Origin: an uncultured Bacilli bacterium
GTDB lineage: Bacteria > Bacillota_I > Bacilli_A > RF39 > UBA660
Assembly: GCA_944367495.1 (NCBI GenBank)
Contig: CALVWP010000004.1
Coordinates: forward strand, 6,202-70,201
Direction: 5' to 3'
DNA length: 64,000 bases
Shown: piece after piece, positions 11,249-34,373 of the stretch
Position numbering within the stretch: position 1 is the stretch's first letter
Layout of the letters: each line of letters begins with the position of its first letter
Program-made: the position numbers and the translations under genes
Notes under the pieces: generated by a model
What the model was told of the DNA's origin: nothing
What the model saw: the letters and a program-made list of their open reading frames with translations, nothing else
Databases searched by the model: none

Positions 11249-11320
11249 TGGTACAAAAAAATACTGTGGAAAAAGCCAAAAACTATTGAAAAAAAATAAA
11301 AAATATTATATTATATCAAT

Positions 11321-11393
11321 GGTACAACACTTATGGCTGAACCAGGTCAGAATCGGAAGATAGCAGCCTTAAAGCCCTCTAAGCGTGTGTACC
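11321..11393 (+). ncRNA. ffs: Signal recognition particle RNA (small 4.5S-type scRNA)
   Basis: The conserved domain IV motif ACCAGGUCAGAAUCGGAAGAUAGCAGCC is present. Terminal helix GGUACA...UGUACC, followed by U6. The position is immediately upstream of tadA-dnaX. B. subtilis has scr between tadA and dnaX, so the placement here is shifted by one gene. Confidence 0.75.
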
Positions 11394-11412
11394 TTTTTTG
11401 TAGGTGATTTAT

Positions 11413-26861: not shown

Positions 26862-27076
26862 TTAAATGCACTGAAAGAAAGAAAAGTAGGTAACTTTATA
26901 GAGAGTTTATGCTTGGTGGAAATAAACAAGGTAACTACTTCGAATGGCTCTGGAGCAGCCTAGCCGATATTTAAGCTAGGCCGGTTAAAACCGTTATATG
27001 TTTAAAGGTAAGCAAAGCTTATAAATTAAGGTGGTACCACGCTCATAAACGTCCTTATTCTAAGGATGTTTTTTTC
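26862..27076 (+). promoter_or_regulatory. T-box riboswitch leader (probable Met specificity) preceding dut-metG
   Basis: AGAGAG box, conserved T-box sequence AATTAAGGTGGTACCACG, and a terminator hairpin CGTCCTTATTCTAAGGATG + T8. AUG-containing candidate specifier sequences are present. The downstream gene is metG. Confidence 0.75.
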
Positions 27077-27095
27077 TATAAAAAAGGAGGATTTT

Positions 27096-27572
27096 ATGCG
27101 AAAATTTGAAAAAATATCTATGTCCGCTTTTACTAAAGAAACCGGATTAACCGAAAAAGAATATAATAATATAATTATGCCTCATCGAGCTACTGAAAAT
27201 AGTGCCGGCTACGACTTTCATCTTTTAGAAGATTTAAGTTTAAAACCGGGAGAAATCAAGAAAATTAAAACAGGAATAAAAGCTGCCATGAATAATAATG
27301 AAGTATTAATGATATATATCAGAAGTAGTTTAGGCTTTAAATATAATTTAAGATTATGTAACGGGACAGGCATTATTGATAGCGATTACTATAACAACGA
27401 AACAAATGAAGGACATATAGTCATAGCTATTCAAAATGAGGGAGAAAAAAACGTAGAATTAAAAGCAAATGATCGTTTTGTTCAAGGCATTTTCATGAAA
27501 TATTTAACTATCGATGACGAAGAACAAGTAAATAATGTTCGACAAGGTGGAATAGGAAGTACAAGGAGGTAA
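27096..27572 (+). CDS. dut: dUTP diphosphatase
   Basis: Motifs PHRATENSAGYDF and C-terminal RQGGIGSTRR. Start set at the ATG after an AAGGAGG RBS (the track starts at 27066). Confidence 0.85.
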   Translation: MRKFEKISMSAFTKETGLTEKEYNNIIMPHRATENSAGYDFHLLEDLSLKPGEIKKIKTGIKAAMNNNEVLMIYIRSSLGFKYNLRLCNGTGIIDSDYYNNETNEGHIVIAIQNEGEKNVELKANDRFVQGIFMKYLTIDDEEQVNNVRQGGIGSTRR

Positions 27573-27576
27573 TAAA

Positions 27577-29136
27577 ATGAAACCAAAATACTATATAACA
27601 ACATCTATTTTTTACGCATCAGCCAAACCTCATATAGGAAATACATATGAGGGAATATTAACTGATGCTATCGCCAGGTATAAAAGATTAATGGGCTATG
27701 ATGTGATTTTTACAACCGGAACAGATGAACACGGTGAAAAAGTTCAAAACAAAGCTAAAGAAGCTGGAAAAACACCGCAAGAATATGTTGACGAAATATC
27801 ATTAGAAGTAAGAAGAATCGATGATATCATGAATATCAGTTATGATAAATTTGTTAGAACAACTAATCCTCACCATAAAGAAATAGTTGCTAAAATATTT
27901 AAAAAACTATATGATAATGGTGATATTTATAAAGGAAAATATGAAGGATTATACTGCACGCCTTGCGAATCATTCTTTACCGAAAAAGAACTAGTAGACG
28001 GAAAATGTCCAGACTGTGGAAGAGAGGTTCATAAAACCAGTGAAGAAGCATATTTTTTAAAACTAAGTAAATACAACAAATGGCTTGAAGAATATATCGA
28101 ATCTCATCCAGATTTCATAATACCTGAAAGCCGAAAAAATGAAATAATGAATAACTTTATAAAAAAAGGTGTTGAAGATTTATGTATATCAAGAACGTCA
28201 TTTGATTGGGGAGTAAAAGTACCAATTGATGACAAACATATTATCTATGTTTGGTTAGATGCCCTAACAAACTATATAACATTTATTGGATATGACCCAG
28301 ATGAAAGCACAGAAGAATTCAAAAAATATTGGCCAGCTGATGTTCATATAATAGGAAAAGATATTTTAAGATTTCATACCATTTATTGGCCGGTAATATT
28401 AAAAGCATTAGACTTGCCAATGCCAAAACATATTTTTGGTCACCCTTGGGTTTTGGCTTCAAATAGTGATAAAATGAGCAAATCAAAAGGAAATGTTTTA
28501 TATGCTGACGATTTAGCCAATCTATTTGGAACTGATGCTATAAGATATTACTGTCTTCATGAAATTCCTTATGGCTATGATGGCAACATCAGTTATGACT
28601 TAATTATCGATAGAGTAAATTCTGATTTGGCTAACACCTTAGGAAACTTAGTCAATAGAACTATTAGTATGACTCATAAATACTTTAATGGTGAAGTATT
28701 TAAACCAACTAGTTTTGAAAGTATCGATAAAGATCTAATCGAAAATGCGAAAACCTTAGGTGATAGAATTGAAGAAAAAATGAATAAATTCAAAATAGCT
28801 GAAGCTATCGAAGAAATAATTGAACTATGCCGTAAAAGTAATAAATATATTGATGAAACAACTCCTTGGATTCTAGCTAAAGACGAAACAAAACAAGAAA
28901 GATTAAAAACCGTTTTATATAATTTACTCGAAACAATAAGAATATCAGCCGTTTATTTAACTGCATTTTTACCAGAAACAGCCGATAAAATATTTAAACA
29001 ATTAAATACACAAAACCGTTTTATAGAATCTACAAAAAATTTTAAAGGTATGGATTCTGGCATTATTTTAAACAAACCTGAAATATTATTTGCCAGAGTT
29101 GATAAAGATGAATTTTCTAAAAAATTACTTTCTTAA
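27577..29136 (+). CDS. metG: Methionyl-tRNA synthetase (short form without C-terminal tRNA-binding domain)
   Basis: 519 aa. HIGN motif (YASAKPHIGNTYE), KMSKS loop KMSKSKGNV, and zinc knuckle CTPCES...CPDCG. Confidence 0.95.
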   Translation: MKPKYYITTSIFYASAKPHIGNTYEGILTDAIARYKRLMGYDVIFTTGTDEHGEKVQNKAKEAGKTPQEYVDEISLEVRRIDDIMNISYDKFVRTTNPHHKEIVAKIFKKLYDNGDIYKGKYEGLYCTPCESFFTEKELVDGKCPDCGREVHKTSEEAYFLKLSKYNKWLEEYIESHPDFIIPESRKNEIMNNFIKKGVEDLCISRTSFDWGVKVPIDDKHIIYVWLDALTNYITFIGYDPDESTEEFKKYWPADVHIIGKDILRFHTIYWPVILKALDLPMPKHIFGHPWVLASNSDKMSKSKGNVLYADDLANLFGTDAIRYYCLHEIPYGYDGNISYDLIIDRVNSDLANTLGNLVNRTISMTHKYFNGEVFKPTSFESIDKDLIENAKTLGDRIEEKMNKFKIAEAIEEIIELCRKSNKYIDETTPWILAKDETKQERLKTVLYNLLETIRISAVYLTAFLPETADKIFKQLNTQNRFIESTKNFKGMDSGIILNKPEILFARVDKDEFSKKLLS

Positions 29137-30258: not shown

Positions 30259-30963
30259 ATGAAAAAATATCACCTGCGATATTTAGGCGTTTCATTACTA
30301 GTAAGCATCCTAACTATCACAGGGTTAATAACATCTGGTAACCTAATTTCAGAAAAGAAAATTGAAGTAAAAAATTTAAACCAGACTAAAGACTCAGTGG
30401 CCTTAACGAAAGTCATTGAGTATGATACAGTCGAAACTTATAACAGCAAAATACCTACTGGCGTCACTATAACAAAAGAGAAGGGGCATACTGGACTTGC
30501 TTATATCGATGAAGAAAACAATGAAATAATCATCGAAAGTCCAAAAAATGCAAAAATCGAAATTGGAACTGGAGACGAAGCTGATTATGTAGGTAAAATG
30601 ACAGGTTATGGTGCCGACTGCGCTGGGTGTTCTGGAAATGGAACGCTAGCTTGTAAAACCAAAAACGGAAGTTATCATAGTTTAATCAAAAATGGTACAA
30701 CTTATAACGACGACGAATATGGTGAAGTTAGAATAATAGCTGCTGCTTTAGATAAATTTCCGTGCGGAACAATTATCAAAGTAGAAAATCCAAATTTAGG
30801 CACCTTTAATGCTATTGTATTAGACACTGGTGGAGCAATGAAAAATGCTTGGGAAAATGGTATTGTCCATATGGATTTGGCTTATGTAACCGAAACCGAT
30901 CCAGCAATTCATTTAACTACAAGTTCTAATGTAAAATATAGTGTTCAAAGATGGGGTTATTAA
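30259..30963 (+). CDS. 3D-domain cell-wall-binding protein (YabE-like, RlpA/MltA-type double-psi beta-barrel)
   Basis: 234 aa. Signal anchor, 3D-domain motif GYGADCAGCSGNG...LDTGGA. Lies after tatD as yabE does in Bacillus. Confidence 0.75.
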   Translation: MKKYHLRYLGVSLLVSILTITGLITSGNLISEKKIEVKNLNQTKDSVALTKVIEYDTVETYNSKIPTGVTITKEKGHTGLAYIDEENNEIIIESPKNAKIEIGTGDEADYVGKMTGYGADCAGCSGNGTLACKTKNGSYHSLIKNGTTYNDDEYGEVRIIAAALDKFPCGTIIKVENPNLGTFNAIVLDTGGAMKNAWENGIVHMDLAYVTETDPAIHLTTSSNVKYSVQRWGY

Positions 30964-31081
30964 ACCTCATTTTTTTGTTTTAAAAAGCAATAACCTCTAG
31001 TTATAAAATTATAAAAAATATATATTTTATTTTTCAAGGGTTGCTAGATAAAATATGATTTAACAAAGGAGGGTTTAATAA

Positions 31082-32587
31082 ATGAAATTAGTAAATCCGA
31101 CTATTAAATACAAAGAAACATATTTAAATTTAATTAAAGCCGCACAAAAAAACGGCGATATCAATGAAATGGGTAATGCCTACCGCGAAAATGAAAATTT
31201 TGATGATATGCTTAAACGTTTAAAAGATCGCGCTAGAGGAAAAAACATTTCAAAACTTGATGTTCCATCATCGATGAAATGGGTAATTGAAAACAATGAA
31301 GTAGTTGGCACCATTGATTTGAGGCACATTTTAAACAAAAGTTATTTTGAAAGACTTGGTCACGTTGCTTATTACATTCATCCTAAAAAAAGAAAAAAAG
31401 GTTATGCCACTAAAGCTTTAAACTTAGCCATTAAGTGGTATAAAAAAATGCCAATTAATAAAATTTTAATCACCTGTTATAGTGATAATGAAGCTTCTAA
31501 AAAAGTTATTTTAAATAATGGTGGTGTTTTAGAAAAAACAGTTCAAGATAAACAAAGTGGTAAAACTATCAATCGTTATTTAATAGATATAAGTGATAAA
31601 ATTTTTCCAAGAGTTGCTTGGCTTACGACAAATAGAAGTTGTAATTGTAAATGTGCATGGTGCTATGCTAATGACTATAAAGGAAAAAAAGCTACAATGG
31701 ACTACAATTTAGCCAAAAAATATATAAAAGAATTACCAAAAATTGGTGTTAGAAAAGTTATTTTAATTGGTGGAGAGCCTACTATATATAAAGAAATTAC
31801 TAAAATTATAAAAAAGCTTGCCGATGAGAGAATCACTGTTTCTATGGCCAGTAATGGAATAAAGTTTTCGGATTATAAATTTGCCGAATCATTAGTCTCA
31901 GCAGGACTTAAAAACGTAAATATTTCTTTAAAAGGAACTAATGAAGAAGAATATTTAAAAAGCACTCTAGTATATGGTTTAAAAAAAGCTATTAAAGGTT
32001 ATCACAATTTAAAAAAATTAGGAGCAAACGTCAGTCTTTCATATGTCCTTTGTACAAACGATAAAACCAAAATAGATGAATTGTTAAATTTAATTGAAAA
32101 AAACAAATTAAATAACATTTCTTTCCAATTTTATAAACCATCAATTTTTACAAATGATTATAATACACCTACAATCGATGATTTGGTATCGATTTGTTCA
32201 TATGTATATGATAAATTTGAAAATAGAAATATTAATTACTCTATCGAAATGTCATTACCGCTTTGTCATTTGCCAGATGATTTACTAAATAATTTAATTA
32301 AGAAAAATCGAATTTCTACTTGTTGTCATATTAGTAAAGGTAAAGGCTTAGTTTTCGATACTAATTTTAATATTCTACCTTGTAATCATTTCTTAAACAT
32401 TTCTTTAAATACCAATCCAATAAAACCAAATCAAATAGTTGATTTTTGGAACTCCGCAATACCAAGTGAATTTAGAAAAAAAGTTAATACCTACCCTAAT
32501 GATAAATGCCGTAAATGTGATAAATGGAAAATTTGTGGTGGTGGCTGTTTCTTAAGATTAATTTCACCAAAAAACGAAAGGGGGTGA
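31082..32587 (+). CDS. Fusion protein: N-terminal GNAT N-acetyltransferase, radical SAM core and C-terminal SPASM domain (putative peptide-modifying maturase)
   Basis: 501 aa. GNAT motifs (RHILNKSYFERLGHVAYYIHPKKRKKGYATKAL). The rSAM CX3CX2C is CNCKCAWC, followed by a GGEPT SAM-binding motif. The SPASM motif CX2CX5CX3C is CRKCDKWKICGGGC, with additional upstream Cys. Confidence 0.85.
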   Translation: MKLVNPTIKYKETYLNLIKAAQKNGDINEMGNAYRENENFDDMLKRLKDRARGKNISKLDVPSSMKWVIENNEVVGTIDLRHILNKSYFERLGHVAYYIHPKKRKKGYATKALNLAIKWYKKMPINKILITCYSDNEASKKVILNNGGVLEKTVQDKQSGKTINRYLIDISDKIFPRVAWLTTNRSCNCKCAWCYANDYKGKKATMDYNLAKKYIKELPKIGVRKVILIGGEPTIYKEITKIIKKLADERITVSMASNGIKFSDYKFAESLVSAGLKNVNISLKGTNEEEYLKSTLVYGLKKAIKGYHNLKKLGANVSLSYVLCTNDKTKIDELLNLIEKNKLNNISFQFYKPSIFTNDYNTPTIDDLVSICSYVYDKFENRNINYSIEMSLPLCHLPDDLLNNLIKKNRISTCCHISKGKGLVFDTNFNILPCNHFLNISLNTNPIKPNQIVDFWNSAIPSEFRKKVNTYPNDKCRKCDKWKICGGGCFLRLISPKNERG

Positions 32588-32591
32588 AAAT

Positions 32592-32738
32592 ATGGACGCT
32601 TTAAAATTTGTTAATCAATTTTATAAAAGTACAGATGTTGAAGCCGATTTAACACAAGGAATCAAAAGCATATCAGCCAATGACTTAGATTGTAACTGTG
32701 TAGATGGTGACTGCTCTACTGAAACTTATGAATATTAA
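32592..32738 (+). CDS. Candidate RiPP precursor peptide (48 aa) with a Cys/Asp-rich C-terminal core
   Basis: ATG 4 nt after the maturase stop, with an AAAGGGGG RBS. Sequence MDALKFVNQFYKSTDVEADLTQGIKSISANDLDCNCVDGDCSTETYEY. A terminator follows. Shorter than 60 aa, so absent from the ORF track. Confidence 0.6.
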   Translation: MDALKFVNQFYKSTDVEADLTQGIKSISANDLDCNCVDGDCSTETYEY

Positions 32739-32755
32739 ATAAAATTGATTTTTAA

Positions 32756-32779
32756 GGACTGTTATTCAGCAGTCTTTTT
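32756..32779 (+). terminator. Rho-independent terminator after the precursor peptide gene
   Basis: GACTG...CAGTC hairpin followed by TTTTT. Confidence 0.5.
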
Positions 32780-32836
32780 AAATTTTTAAAAAAAGGGAAA
32801 TAAATGATATAATTAATTCAAACGGAGGTTTTGTAT

Positions 32837-33746: not shown

Positions 33747-34373
33747 ATGAATATTGAAAAAAATGAAACACAAATTGATAAACCTACAAACTTAGAAATA
33801 TATAATGATGGTCAACTATATTTAATCGTTGACTTAGAAAGCACAAATATGAATGAATTAATTGAAAGCCTAAAACAAACATATGATGAAAATACTATAA
33901 ATAATGCTTTAATATATAATTTAAATCAAATAGCTGAAAGATTAAATTATATTGACGAAGTAGCTTTAGGAAAAACAGGATTGATTGCTACAAAAGGTAG
34001 CGATGACACATTACATTTTAATAAAAAATCAAAAGAAGACGTTACTGAGAATTTTAATATTCAACCTATAAATAAAAATGAATATGTTATACAACCAAAC
34101 CCTCAAGGTGGCTATGATTTGCTTTTAGGTGGAGTTGGATTAGGTGCTCACGAAATAATTGATTTAATAAATGAATTAAAGCTTAAAGGAATTGTTCCTG
34201 TAAGCGCTGAAGTAACTCCACATATTAATGGAGAGATAGATATGGCAAAGATAAATGAAAATGCTCAAAGATTTACCGACGAAAGATTAGAAAATAATTA
34301 TGACATGTCAGTAAACTCATATTGCGAGATAGGATTAAACCCATCAGAAGAAGATCATCACAAAACAAGATAA
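33747..34373 (+). CDS. Hypothetical protein (208 aa)
   Basis: Intact ORF with a Gly-rich segment GGYDLLLGGVGLGAH. No family recognised. Confidence 0.4.
   Translation: MNIEKNETQIDKPTNLEIYNDGQLYLIVDLESTNMNELIESLKQTYDENTINNALIYNLNQIAERLNYIDEVALGKTGLIATKGSDDTLHFNKKSKEDVTENFNIQPINKNEYVIQPNPQGGYDLLLGGVGLGAHEIIDLINELKLKGIVPVSAEVTPHINGEIDMAKINENAQRFTDERLENNYDMSVNSYCEIGLNPSEEDHHKTR

Follow-up and report, generated by a model that had tools for sequence, protein, structure and literature searches.

A candidate two-gene cassette pairing a GNAT–radical-SAM/SPASM fusion enzyme with a Cys/Asp-rich peptide in an uncultured Bacilli bacterium

The small open reading frame at 32592-32738 of the window (the whole 64,000-nucleotide stretch of DNA that was analysed) directly follows a gene encoding a radical-SAM/SPASM enzyme with an N-terminally fused GNAT domain, and its 48-aa product is almost certainly a ribosomal substrate that the neighbouring enzyme modifies, to judge from the genomic associations described below. 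The reading that is somewhat favoured here is that 31082-32738 constitutes a self-contained two-gene cassette, in which a peptide-modifying enzyme is followed by its own substrate; by sequence, the two genes form one transcription unit flanked by terminators, and the ribosome-binding site of the peptide lies within the last part of the enzyme's coding sequence (Table 1). A first-pass annotation of this DNA had proposed the ORF as the precursor of the adjacent enzyme, and that proposal is upheld because the two strictly co-occur and are lost together, because their translation appears tightly coupled, and because a conserved leader is joined to a variable core.

Table 1. Features of the putative cassette and its boundaries (positions in the window)
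Feature	Position	Strand	Basis or remark
Terminator-like hairpin, 12-pair stem and T-run	30947..30974	+	Ends the YabE-like upstream gene and delimits the unit on its 5' side
Putative intergenic cassette promoter	30980..31059	+	Sigma-70-like hexamer pairs at 30980-31009 and 31031-31059
GNAT–radical-SAM/SPASM fusion gene	31082-32587	+	Directly upstream of the peptide gene
GNAT domain (RimJ/RimL-like, Acetyltransf_3), residues 1-172	31082..31597	+	R-x-x-G-x-A acetyl-CoA motif, present as RKKGYA
Radical-SAM/SPASM domain, residues 173-501 plus stop	31598..32587	+	CX3CX2C motif and SPASM Cys residues
Ribosome-binding site AAAGGGGG	32577..32584	+	Inside the enzyme gene (3' end), 7 nt upstream of the peptide start codon
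Peptide gene, 48 codons	32592..32738	+	Translation MDALKFVNQFYKSTDVEADLTQGIKSISANDLDCNCVDGDCSTETYEY
Leader part, residues 1-30 (boundary approximate)	32592..32681	+	M-D-A-L-x-F-V...Y-x-S/G-T...T-x-G23-I-K
Core part, residues 31-48, DLDCNCVDGDCSTETYEY, plus stop	32682..32738	+	Residue conservation and codon differences
Intrinsic-terminator-like hairpin and T-run	32754..32785 (hairpin 32754-32777)	+	Closes the unit on its 3' side, ahead of the ksgA/rsmA promoter

Everything that the first-pass annotation had stated about the sequence of the small ORF holds, including its length, its start 4 nt after the stop codon of the enzyme gene (TGA, 32585-32587), its ribosome-binding site and the terminator that follows it. 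The spacing of the two genes in relatives ranges from an overlap of at most 4 nt to a separation of about 18 nt. The downstream hairpin (-13.3 kcal/mol, z = -3.9) was equalled by none of 200 shuffled sequences; both sigma-70-like hexamer pairs upstream of the enzyme gene are weak, with 9 of 12 consensus matches each, and were located by consensus matching only. No in-frame ATG lies upstream of 32592 in the window, and the same peptide was predicted by independent gene callers on 21 contigs. Some peptides of relatives were called as 54-aa forms (MKGGE[IK]MDAL...) that start inside the ribosome-binding site, so the Met of MDAL is probably the true start in these relatives as well. Substitutions in the peptide gene among relatives fall mostly at third codon positions, the core codons showing 1-9 synonymous versus 0-2 nonsynonymous differences, and the amino-acid changes among close relatives are mostly in the leader. 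Judged by this pattern of substitution, the ORF is a real, conserved gene under protein-level purifying selection. That it might instead be a chance frame, or an untranslated one, in the 3' UTR that follows the enzyme's coding sequence, as could be supposed for a short frame that has no model in Pfam or NCBIfam, is barely credible when the frame is conserved with predominantly synonymous substitutions, the ribosome-binding site is strong and well spaced, the terminator comes after the ORF and not before it, and the peptide is present with all intact homologues of the enzyme, even those at 40% identity, and is missing otherwise.

A hidden Markov model of the peptide family matched one peptide, and no more, next to every one of 13 intact enzyme homologues (13 sources scanned: 12 loci and the window, duplicate samplings included), and matched none at six loci without an intact enzyme. 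These six are five GNAT-only relatives (L004-L008) and one locus (L017) at which the radical-SAM Cys motif has been lost and the peptide is also missing. Later look-ups placed a fused enzyme upstream of the peptide at two more loci (L018 and L019) and a standalone enzyme at two others (L020 and L022), and a tandem pair (L016) still has one peptide per enzyme. Distant standalone homologues from Clostridia and Lachnospiraceae (40-55% identity) also adjoin family peptides; in these the leader is shared, and the Cys/Asp-rich cores differ greatly, some containing repeats. The GNAT–radical-SAM–peptide unit has been retained in at least five different genomic contexts. The search for paralogous peptides that the first-pass annotation had recommended yielded no second copy within the 64-kb window.

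The peptide family, gathered by exhaustive profile search, consists of 39 clusters at 50% identity, all of 41-81 aa. Homologous members of the peptide and enzyme families are labelled only 'hypothetical protein' and 'radical SAM protein' at NCBI, the peptide of the window has no Pfam match and seven family peptides (this one and six others) no NCBIfam match, in both cases at E <= 1, and the peptide family is described in no database or literature searched. Among 28 cluster representatives, G23 is invariant and L4 near-invariant in the leader; C34 and C36 are invariant and D33, D40 and C41 near-invariant in the core, which bears the family signature L-D-C-[N/D]-C-V-D. Sixty-two peptides share the leader motif Y-x-G-T...G-I/L but differ in the length, Cys count and repeats of their cores, some of which end ...DCNCVDD, ...DCSI or ...DCSNCD. 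A leader that is conserved and a Cys/Asp-rich core that varies are together the pattern expected of a RiPP precursor, and from this conservation pattern the N-terminal residues (approximately 30) would serve as a recognition leader and the C-terminal residues (approximately 18) as the modified core. The terms leader and core are operational labels only, because no cleavage motif, protease or exporter was found.

The enzyme is a member of the radical SAM superfamily (PF04055, 82.8 bits versus a cut-off of 29.5) with a full SPASM domain (TIGR04085, 38.8 bits versus a cut-off of 27). The residues C187-x3-C191-x2-C194 (nt 31640-31663) are all near-invariant in 53 homologues, and eight conserved SPASM cysteines (C395, C414, C415, C434, C476, C479, C485 and C489) are encoded at nt 32264-32548, a SPASM domain being characterised by 7-8 Cys that hold two auxiliary [4Fe-4S] clusters. 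Only generic radical-SAM, SPASM and GNAT models of Pfam and NCBIfam are passed, and no curated equivalog is reached. The maturase types that the first-pass annotation had invoked do not fit: the enzyme falls far below the cut-offs of the PapB family (NF047865, 46.8 bits versus 340) and, in its SPASM region, of the SCIFF or thermocellin-type maturases (TIGR03974, 17.3 bits versus 425). It is also below the cut-offs for StsB (51.3 bits versus 625), QhpD (12.3 versus 453), PqqE (53.8 versus 381.35), MftC (51.9 versus 265) and StrB (TIGR04080, 65.5 versus 500); the best SPASM-domain match among equivalog families is to anSME. The nearest solved structures include the peptide-modifying enzymes SuiB, ChlB, anSME, SkfB, PqqE and CteB as well as the non-peptide enzymes BlsE and MoaA, the best of them being SuiB at 18% identity. 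RiPP recognition elements (RREs) are common in RiPP enzymes but not obligatory, and none was detected here: there is no match to PF05402 or any other wHTH model at E <= 0.01, and the AF2 model (compact two-domain, pTM 0.87) passes from the GNAT (residues 1-170) directly to a radical-SAM barrel that begins at residue 178. Because the enzyme has no RRE, the leader would have to be bound by the body of the radical-SAM domain or, in the clade with the fusion, by the GNAT. Homologues of the enzyme comprise more than 200 clusters, in which the standalone (GNAT-less) forms are only 331-340 aa long.

The peptide could be genuine and tied to the enzyme and nevertheless be unmodified, acting as a Cys/Asp-rich metal or Fe-S accessory, a chaperone or a regulator of an enzyme that works on another substrate. 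The C-x-C and Asp-rich motifs of the peptide are typical metal ligands, and housekeeping surroundings, an enzyme without an RRE and the lack of a protease or exporter would suit such a partner; but a constant N-terminal segment attached to a core of changing length, Cys number and repeat structure is RiPP-like and would be unexpected of a structural partner, each enzyme has a single peptide even in the tandem pair, and several structural neighbours of the enzyme modify peptides, all of which makes an unmodified partner highly unlikely.

If the peptide is the substrate, the cluster held by C187, C191 and C194 would cleave SAM, two auxiliary SPASM clusters would handle Cys thiols, and the invariant D-C-x-C-V-D block would receive intramolecular cross-links. 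The most likely products would be thioethers from Cys sulfur to Asp or Asn side-chain carbons in the manner of ranthipeptides, C34 to D38 first, with a linkage of Cys sulfur to C-alpha (as in sactipeptides) as a close alternative; for the formation of some thioether, as predicted from these motifs, the balance is about even, with at most a slight lean in its favour. The spacings from which the first-pass annotation had argued for Cys-Asp and Cys-Thr links (C34-x3-D38, C36-x3-D40 and C41-x3-T45) are indeed present in the translation, and the first of them is largely conserved in the family: of 54 cluster representatives, 46 have Asp, Asn or Glu at C34+4. The second is less so, with Asp at C36+4 in only 34 of the 54 and Gly in the 'CSTPW' subtype, and the Cys-x3-Thr pattern fails as a family trait, being retained in just 15 of 29 type-A clusters; the variation in the second and third spacings counts against the thioether reading. 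A D-x-x-C register (D31-C34, D33-C36 and D38-C41) fits type A as well as Cx3D does. PapB links Cys to Asp or Glu in Cx3D/E motifs, accepts CxnD spacings of n = 0-6 and does not process the transposed order in which Asp precedes Cys (PMC9413430). A pure Cys-Asp model also leaves unexplained a conserved aromatic residue 4-5 positions past the last Cys, which is Tyr in type A (at C41+5 in 21 of 29 clusters) and Trp in type B, which ends CSTPW, and in the 'DW' cores with their repeated D-W. Further points against a thioether are that the enzyme scores far below the cut-offs of known thioether formers (PapB, StsB, SCIFF and QhpD) and that SuiB, the closest relative of known structure, forms a C-C bond between Lys and Trp.

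These points give some weight, less than to a thioether, to the possibility that the peptide is a substrate for other chemistry, either a C-C or C-O cross-link on the aromatic and acidic tail (E44, Y46 and Y48; Trp in other subtypes), for which PqqE (Glu-Tyr), MftC (C-terminal Tyr), streptide and the triceptides are models, or a Cys oxidation like that of anSME. The Lys-Trp cross-linker SuiB/StrB is both the closest solved structure and one of the better full-length HMM matches, anSME provides the best SPASM-domain match among equivalog families, aromatic residues occur in all three core types as described above, and the peptide of the window has a C-terminal Tyr, as in MftA, and the PqqA-like spacing E44-x3-Y48. 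Yet in the core only C34 and C36 are invariant throughout the family (D33 nearly so); many members lack the tail or have a different one, E44-x3-Y48 is confined to the subgroup of the present peptide, the scores for PqqE and MftC are far below cut-off, and no pqqB/C/D or mftB/D/E-like genes are nearby. Chemistry other than a thioether is on this evidence unlikely. A PQQ- or mycofactocin-like cofactor precursor, suggested by E-x3-Y and the C-terminal Tyr, was set aside because the family does not conserve these features, and neither the enzyme nor the pathway genes match.

The putative thioether cassette can be compared with several known systems. Like the system of freyrasin (PapA/PapB), a ranthipeptide in which Cys sulfur is joined to Asp C-beta within Cx3D motifs, it combines a radical-SAM/SPASM enzyme with a small precursor that has a Cys/Asp-rich core, and the peptide has two Cx3D spacings, the first largely family-conserved; unlike PapA, with its six in-line Cx3D repeats, the present core has three cysteines in a C-x-C arrangement, and the enzyme is outside the PapB family, has no detected RRE, is fused to a GNAT and is without a protease or exporter. 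SCIFF systems (CteB/Tte1186; thermocellin, with a Cys-Thr thioether) are two-gene cassettes that lie among Firmicutes housekeeping genes without a transporter or protease, and are similar in pairing a Cys-rich peptide of approximately 45-50 aa with a radical-SAM/SPASM enzyme. Neither the maturase score given above nor the peptide supports membership in the SCIFF (six Cys in forty-five) system, since none of the seven family peptides matched the SCIFF peptide model, TIGR03973, in NCBIfam at E <= 1. SuiB/StrB differs in possessing an RRE and in forming a Lys-Trp C-C bond at a KxxxW substrate motif, whereas the present core is based on Cys and Asp. QhpD, another radical-SAM/SPASM enzyme, makes thioethers between Cys and Asp or Glu side chains in a small, Cys/Asp-rich polypeptide that is retained in the cell; compared with QhpC/QhpD, the present peptide is much shorter, the enzyme is far from the QhpD model, and there are no qhpA/B/E/G genes nearby. 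A literature search on acetyltransferase fusions of ranthipeptide or radical-SAM RiPP enzymes and on the core motifs of the family found nothing relevant.

The fused GNAT has the GNAT fold with the acetyl-CoA motif R/Q-x-x-G-x-G/A, and from its conserved motifs it looks active. The fusion has been retained from 100% to approximately 50% identity in about 30 clusters. GNAT-less enzymes serve the same peptide family, type-A cores included, and the GNAT is therefore regarded as accessory; it also persists alone in relatives without the enzyme domain and the peptide, and elsewhere is fused to an unrelated domain. One speculation is that it holds the conserved leader N-terminus, M-[D/N/T/S]-A-L, or N-acetylates it. 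All eight examined peptides beside fused enzymes start M-[D/N/T]-A-L and five peptides beside standalone enzymes of 331-337 aa have other N-termini, a correlation that is confounded by phylogeny and has an exception (L013). One locus (L021) has a separate GNAT gene after the peptide, but this is a hint only, because its product shares just 30% identity with the fused GNAT and such genes are common in the neighbourhood of these loci. The GNAT-only relatives have equidistant GNAT identities (81-85%), which do not decide between insertion and deletion as the origin of their state; deletion in the CAG:822 lineage is more parsimonious, because the fused unit occurs in at least five contexts.

RiPP tailoring GNATs such as microviridin MdnD, goadsporin GodH and the lasso-peptide acetyltransferases are separate enzymes that act after the main modification, whereas the present GNAT is fused to the N-terminus of a radical-SAM enzyme, where an RRE usually sits, and also occurs alone in relatives without the pathway. 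The only well-known single chain with radical-SAM and GNAT domains is, to our knowledge, Elp3, which modifies tRNA U34. Elp3 has an N-terminal radical-SAM domain, a Radical_SAM_C domain and a C-terminal KAT domain; an Elp3-like reading of the present enzyme was rejected because its domain order is reversed, its radical-SAM half is of the SPASM type, and it has no match to PF16199 (Radical_SAM_C). More generally, the two halves might act jointly on one substrate, either with acetyl-CoA chemistry coupled to radical chemistry, as in Elp3, or by obligatory N-acetylation of the peptide, to give an acetylated or carboxymethylated cross-linked peptide. The long retention of the fusion across contexts, the conserved GNAT motifs, the compact two-domain model, the distinctive leader start beside fused enzymes and the separate GNAT gene of L021 are consistent with joint action, which is nonetheless quite unlikely in view of the GNAT-less enzymes that pair with the same peptides, the GNATs that survive alone or in another fusion, the domain order opposite to that of Elp3, and the reservations about the leader correlation and L021 noted above. 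It is an equally doubtful idea that the fused GNAT replaces the missing RRE by recognising, and perhaps N-alpha-acetylating, the M-[D/N/T/S]-A-L-E start of the leader and feeding the core to the radical-SAM site, the product being a new class of Cys/Asp cross-linked peptide that is not an antibiotic but is retained by genome-reduced gut Bacilli for cell physiology (signalling, redox or metal). If true, leaders would here be recognised in a new way.

The cassette lies among origin-proximal housekeeping genes, next to ksgA and metG, at the local GC content of approximately 27%, with no compositional sign of foreign origin, and its flanking genes include no dedicated protease, transporter or exporter. 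The host belongs to a low-GC lineage of uncultured gut Bacilli whose genomes are probably small (approximately 1.3-1.5 Mb, sizes taken from the GNAT-only relatives). Because of the housekeeping surroundings and the lack of a protease or exporter, a cell-associated or signalling product, comparable to SCIFF, is more probable than a bacteriocin of the classical, exported kind.

Radical-SAM-modified peptides are a main source of new peptide chemistry. A compendium based on RREs would by design not capture an enzyme that lacks one (PMC10288494), and mining pipelines are likely to miss this pair because most require an RRE or curated enzyme families and the pair has neither. With 39 peptide clusters, more than 200 enzyme clusters and the very short invariant core D-C-x-C-V-D, the family is compact and testable, and its natural variants (GNAT-fused enzyme, standalone enzyme, decayed enzyme without a peptide, and GNAT-only locus) offer a ready-made comparison for leader recognition without an RRE and for the contribution of a covalently attached acetyltransferase. 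Retention of the cassette next to ksgA and metG in genomes that are probably small suggests a physiological role, comparable to the one that SCIFF peptides may have.

Translation confirmed the small ORF and the 48-aa peptide that the first-pass annotation had read directly downstream of the enzyme gene, from which 4 nt separate it (TGA to ATG), and independent pipelines predict the identical peptide on 21 contigs. Hairpins bound the enzyme and peptide genes on both sides, which thus form a bounded two-gene unit; the stability of the downstream hairpin (-13.3 kcal/mol, z = -3.9) was equalled by none of 200 shuffles. When the window was compared with three relatives (L001-L003; enzymes 74-84% identical), third codon positions dominated the substitutions in the ORF, the core codons (31-48) showed 1-9 synonymous versus 0-2 nonsynonymous codon differences per pair, and most amino-acid changes fell in the leader. 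Judged from these sequence features, the ORF is a gene and not a chance reading frame.

Features of the cassette, its surroundings and homologous loci (L) in relatives
Feature	Source	Position	Strand	Remark
Bacterial small SRP RNA, RF00169	window	11311-11408	+	60.1 bits
T-box leader, RF00230	window	26862-27059	+	120.7 bits; directly 5' of dUTPase-like ORF
dUTPase-like ORF	window	27066-27572		
metG	window	27577-29136		
234-aa ORF	window	30259-30963	+	no Pfam match
Terminator-like hairpin	window	30947-30974		end of gene preceding enzyme
Enzyme gene	window	31082-32587	+	stop TGA 32585-32587
AAAGGGGG	window	32577-32584	+	7 nt 5' of peptide ATG
Peptide ORF	window	32592-32738	+	translation MDALKFVNQFYKSTDVEADLTQGIKSISANDLDCNCVDGDCSTETYEY
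Hairpin and T-run	window	32754-32777 (hairpin)		downstream of peptide ORF
208-aa protein	window	33747-34373	+	no Pfam match; C-terminus ...EEDHHKTR
Paralogues of 208-aa protein	L004	5492-5956, 6065-7270		C-terminus ...EEGHHKTR
GNAT gene	L008	4001-4515		GNAT-only relative
Tandem standalone radical-SAM genes	L016	2497-5511		
P0041	L017	3001-4560		
RimJ/L-type GNAT gene	L021	358-915		starts 9 nt after family peptide

The enzyme is a two-part fusion of 501 aa, of which residues 173-501 constitute a radical-SAM/SPASM enzyme with a PF04055 score of 82.8 bits, the radical-SAM motif C187-x3-C191-x2-C194, eight conserved SPASM Cys, and a score of 38.8 bits with the SPASM model TIGR04085 (cut-off 27). 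None of the curated enzyme families scored has its cut-off reached: GeoRSP (85 against 400), WgkB (74/650), StrB (65.5/500), anSME (56.9/349), PqqE (53.8/381), MftC (51.9/265), StsB (51.3/625), PapB (46.8/340) and SCIFF maturase (17/425). The specific PapB-like and thermocellin-like assignments suggested from sequence earlier are not supported. Membership was tested for PapB, SCIFF, StrB, PqqE, MftC and QhpD, and failed for every one. No RiPP recognition element (RRE) was found in the enzyme, in which the GNAT passes straight into the radical-SAM barrel, and the GNAT-less standalone homologues are just 331-340 aa long.

The strongest evidence linking enzyme and peptide is, from comparison of loci, their co-inheritance. 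Among eight loci from species-representative genomes, three have the full fusion with the 48-aa peptide directly 3', followed by ksgA in the order seen in the window, and five have the GNAT alone (L004-L007 of the CAG:822 lineage, and L008); in L004 a stop-terminated 178-aa GNAT, with neither radical-SAM part nor peptide, lies directly 5' of ksgA. A peptide HMM built from 28 family peptides and run on all stop-to-stop ORFs of the loci scanned found exactly one family peptide adjoining each of 13 intact enzymes (12 loci and the window, some being duplicate samplings of one cassette), whereas the five loci with the GNAT alone yielded no hit. Nor was there one downstream of P0041 in L017, a GNAT joined to a radical-SAM-like domain in which the CX3CX2C motif and several SPASM Cys are gone, so that decay of the enzyme coincides with loss of the peptide. 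Further pairs involve fused enzymes in L018 and L019 and standalone enzymes in L020 and L022, and within the fused clade the two genes lie close together, overlapping by 4 nt at one extreme and 18 nt apart at the other. The comparative evidence strongly supports the precursor reading of the first-pass annotation, and the peptide is very probably a translated substrate of the adjacent enzyme.

The fused proteins form about 30 clusters, from 100% down to ~50% identity, and standalone enzyme homologues (40-55% identity) were found in Clostridia and Lachnospiraceae MAGs. Peptides beside the latter have in common the leader …Y-x-G-T-x-I-x-A-P-I-x-x-G-I/V… and strongly divergent cores (FDCDCGDWSSDW…, CDNDCNCNCSDCDCETEGY…, a four-fold SEYCQ repeat). 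When 1.84 billion representatives were searched exhaustively with a profile, 39 peptide clusters, all of 41-81 aa, came out at E < 1e-3, and the core signature is L-D-C-[N/D]-C-V-D in 54 representatives anchored on D-C-x-C. The fused clade has two main core types, type A, to which the window's belongs (…DCNCVD[G/S]DCS[T/I]E[T]Y[E/C][Y/E/S]), and type B (…DCNCVDCGD[S/D][A/S]DCSTPW). Leader conservation coupled with core variability is the hallmark of RiPP precursors. In L016, each of the two tandem radical-SAM genes has one 70-aa family peptide, the cores being very unlike (SEYCQ x4 and CNCNCSDCDC), and there is an additional 40-aa Cys-rich ORF.

In the core, C34 and C36 are invariant, and D33, D40 and C41 near-invariant. 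All three spacings noted earlier (C34-x3-D38, C36-x3-D40 and C41-x3-T45) are present in the window peptide, and they differ in how far they extend to the family. At C34+4, 41 of the 54 clusters have D, 4 have N and 1 has E, which makes the first Cx3D a family feature; C36+4 is D in 34/54 and G in type B; and C41-x3-Thr proved not to be conserved, just 15 of the 29 type-A clusters having T there. PapB bonds Cys sulfur to Asp C-beta or Glu C-gamma, and accepts C-xn-D with n = 0-6 while rejecting the transposed D…C order (PMC9413430). Type A is fitted just as well by an alternative D-x-x-C register (D31-C34, D33-C36, D38-C41). After the last Cys an aromatic residue recurs (in type A it is Y at +5, in 21/29 clusters; in type B, W at +4), D-W motifs occur in other cores of the family, and this recurrence is not explained by a pure Cys-Asp model. 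The Cys/Asp conservation and the PapB precedent make a thioether joining the invariant Cys pair to neighbouring Asp/Asn, at C-alpha or C-beta, the most economical prediction; such chemistry is plausible, at about an even chance.

Retention of the fusion across wide divergence in at least five genomic contexts (beside ksgA; NUDIX; relA; nrdD/nrdG/dut; gyrA/Ku-LigD), conserved GNAT motifs including R-x-x-G-x-A, a compact predicted model, and M-[D/N/T]-A-L starts in 8/8 examined peptides beside fused enzymes, versus different N-termini in five peptides beside 331-337-aa standalone enzymes, would favour a functional link between GNAT and peptide. Against such a link may be set the pairing of the same peptide family, type-A cores included, with standalone enzymes, an M-N-A-L peptide beside a 361-aa enzyme without GNAT in L013, the GNAT kept on its own in the CAG:822 lineage, and the proteins P0094, P0101 and P0108 of relatives, in which this GNAT (69-79% identity) reappears as a fusion module, joined to an unrelated ~190-aa C-terminal domain (…YVYHGS…KSTHG…WVYA…) in place of radical-SAM. 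We conclude from these comparisons that the GNAT is probably accessory to a self-sufficient enzyme-peptide pair; the N-acetylation of the peptide proposed earlier is possible but unproven. The separate GNAT in L021 is just 30% identical to the fused one, and GNAT genes are common near other cassette loci too (L009, L011, L013). In L008 the GNAT frame breaks after about residue 66 and appears frameshifted, by pseudogene formation or assembly error.

The cassette has the local composition (window GC ~27%) and lies in an origin-proximal housekeeping block, with pth, mfd, a spoVT/abrB-like gene, a T-box, a dUTPase-like gene, metG, tatD and a YabE-like gene upstream, and ksgA, further on tilS and ftsH, and later a parA-like gene downstream. 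Relatives carry the annotation of uncultured Bacilli MAGs or of 'Firmicutes bacterium CAG:822'; the two complete chromosomes among them measure 1.34 and 1.52 Mb, and both are GNAT-only. The T-box appears by its position to control the dut-like/metG pair rather than metG alone. The 234-aa ORF (GC 0.35 versus ~0.27 around it) begins with a signal-like N-terminus, and its C-terminal region, GYGADCAGCSG..., looks like that of a YabE/3D-domain protein, which would fit the Bacillus gene order metS-yabD-yabE-ksgA. The two L004 paralogues of the 208-aa protein have a 'NEY[VI]VQPN.QGGYDL.LGGVGL' block in common, and the C-terminal tag ending in HHKTR is conserved.

None of the cassette contexts examined includes a protease, exporter, immunity or regulator gene dedicated to it, a setting closer to that of SCIFF (six Cys in forty-five) genes than to a bacteriocin locus. 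In NCBI, homologous family members go only by 'hypothetical protein' or 'radical SAM protein'; neither the peptide nor the enzyme of the window has a name in the sequence collection, and a literature search found neither the motif nor a GNAT-fused peptide radical-SAM enzyme described. By analogy, the cassette would work like a thioether-type (ranthi/sacti) radical-SAM/SPASM RiPP system. The general arrangement, in which a Cys-rich peptide accompanies a SPASM enzyme, is ordinary, many such uncharacterised families existing; the novelty lies in an architecture that lacks an RRE, in the fused GNAT and in the D-C-x-C-V-D core.
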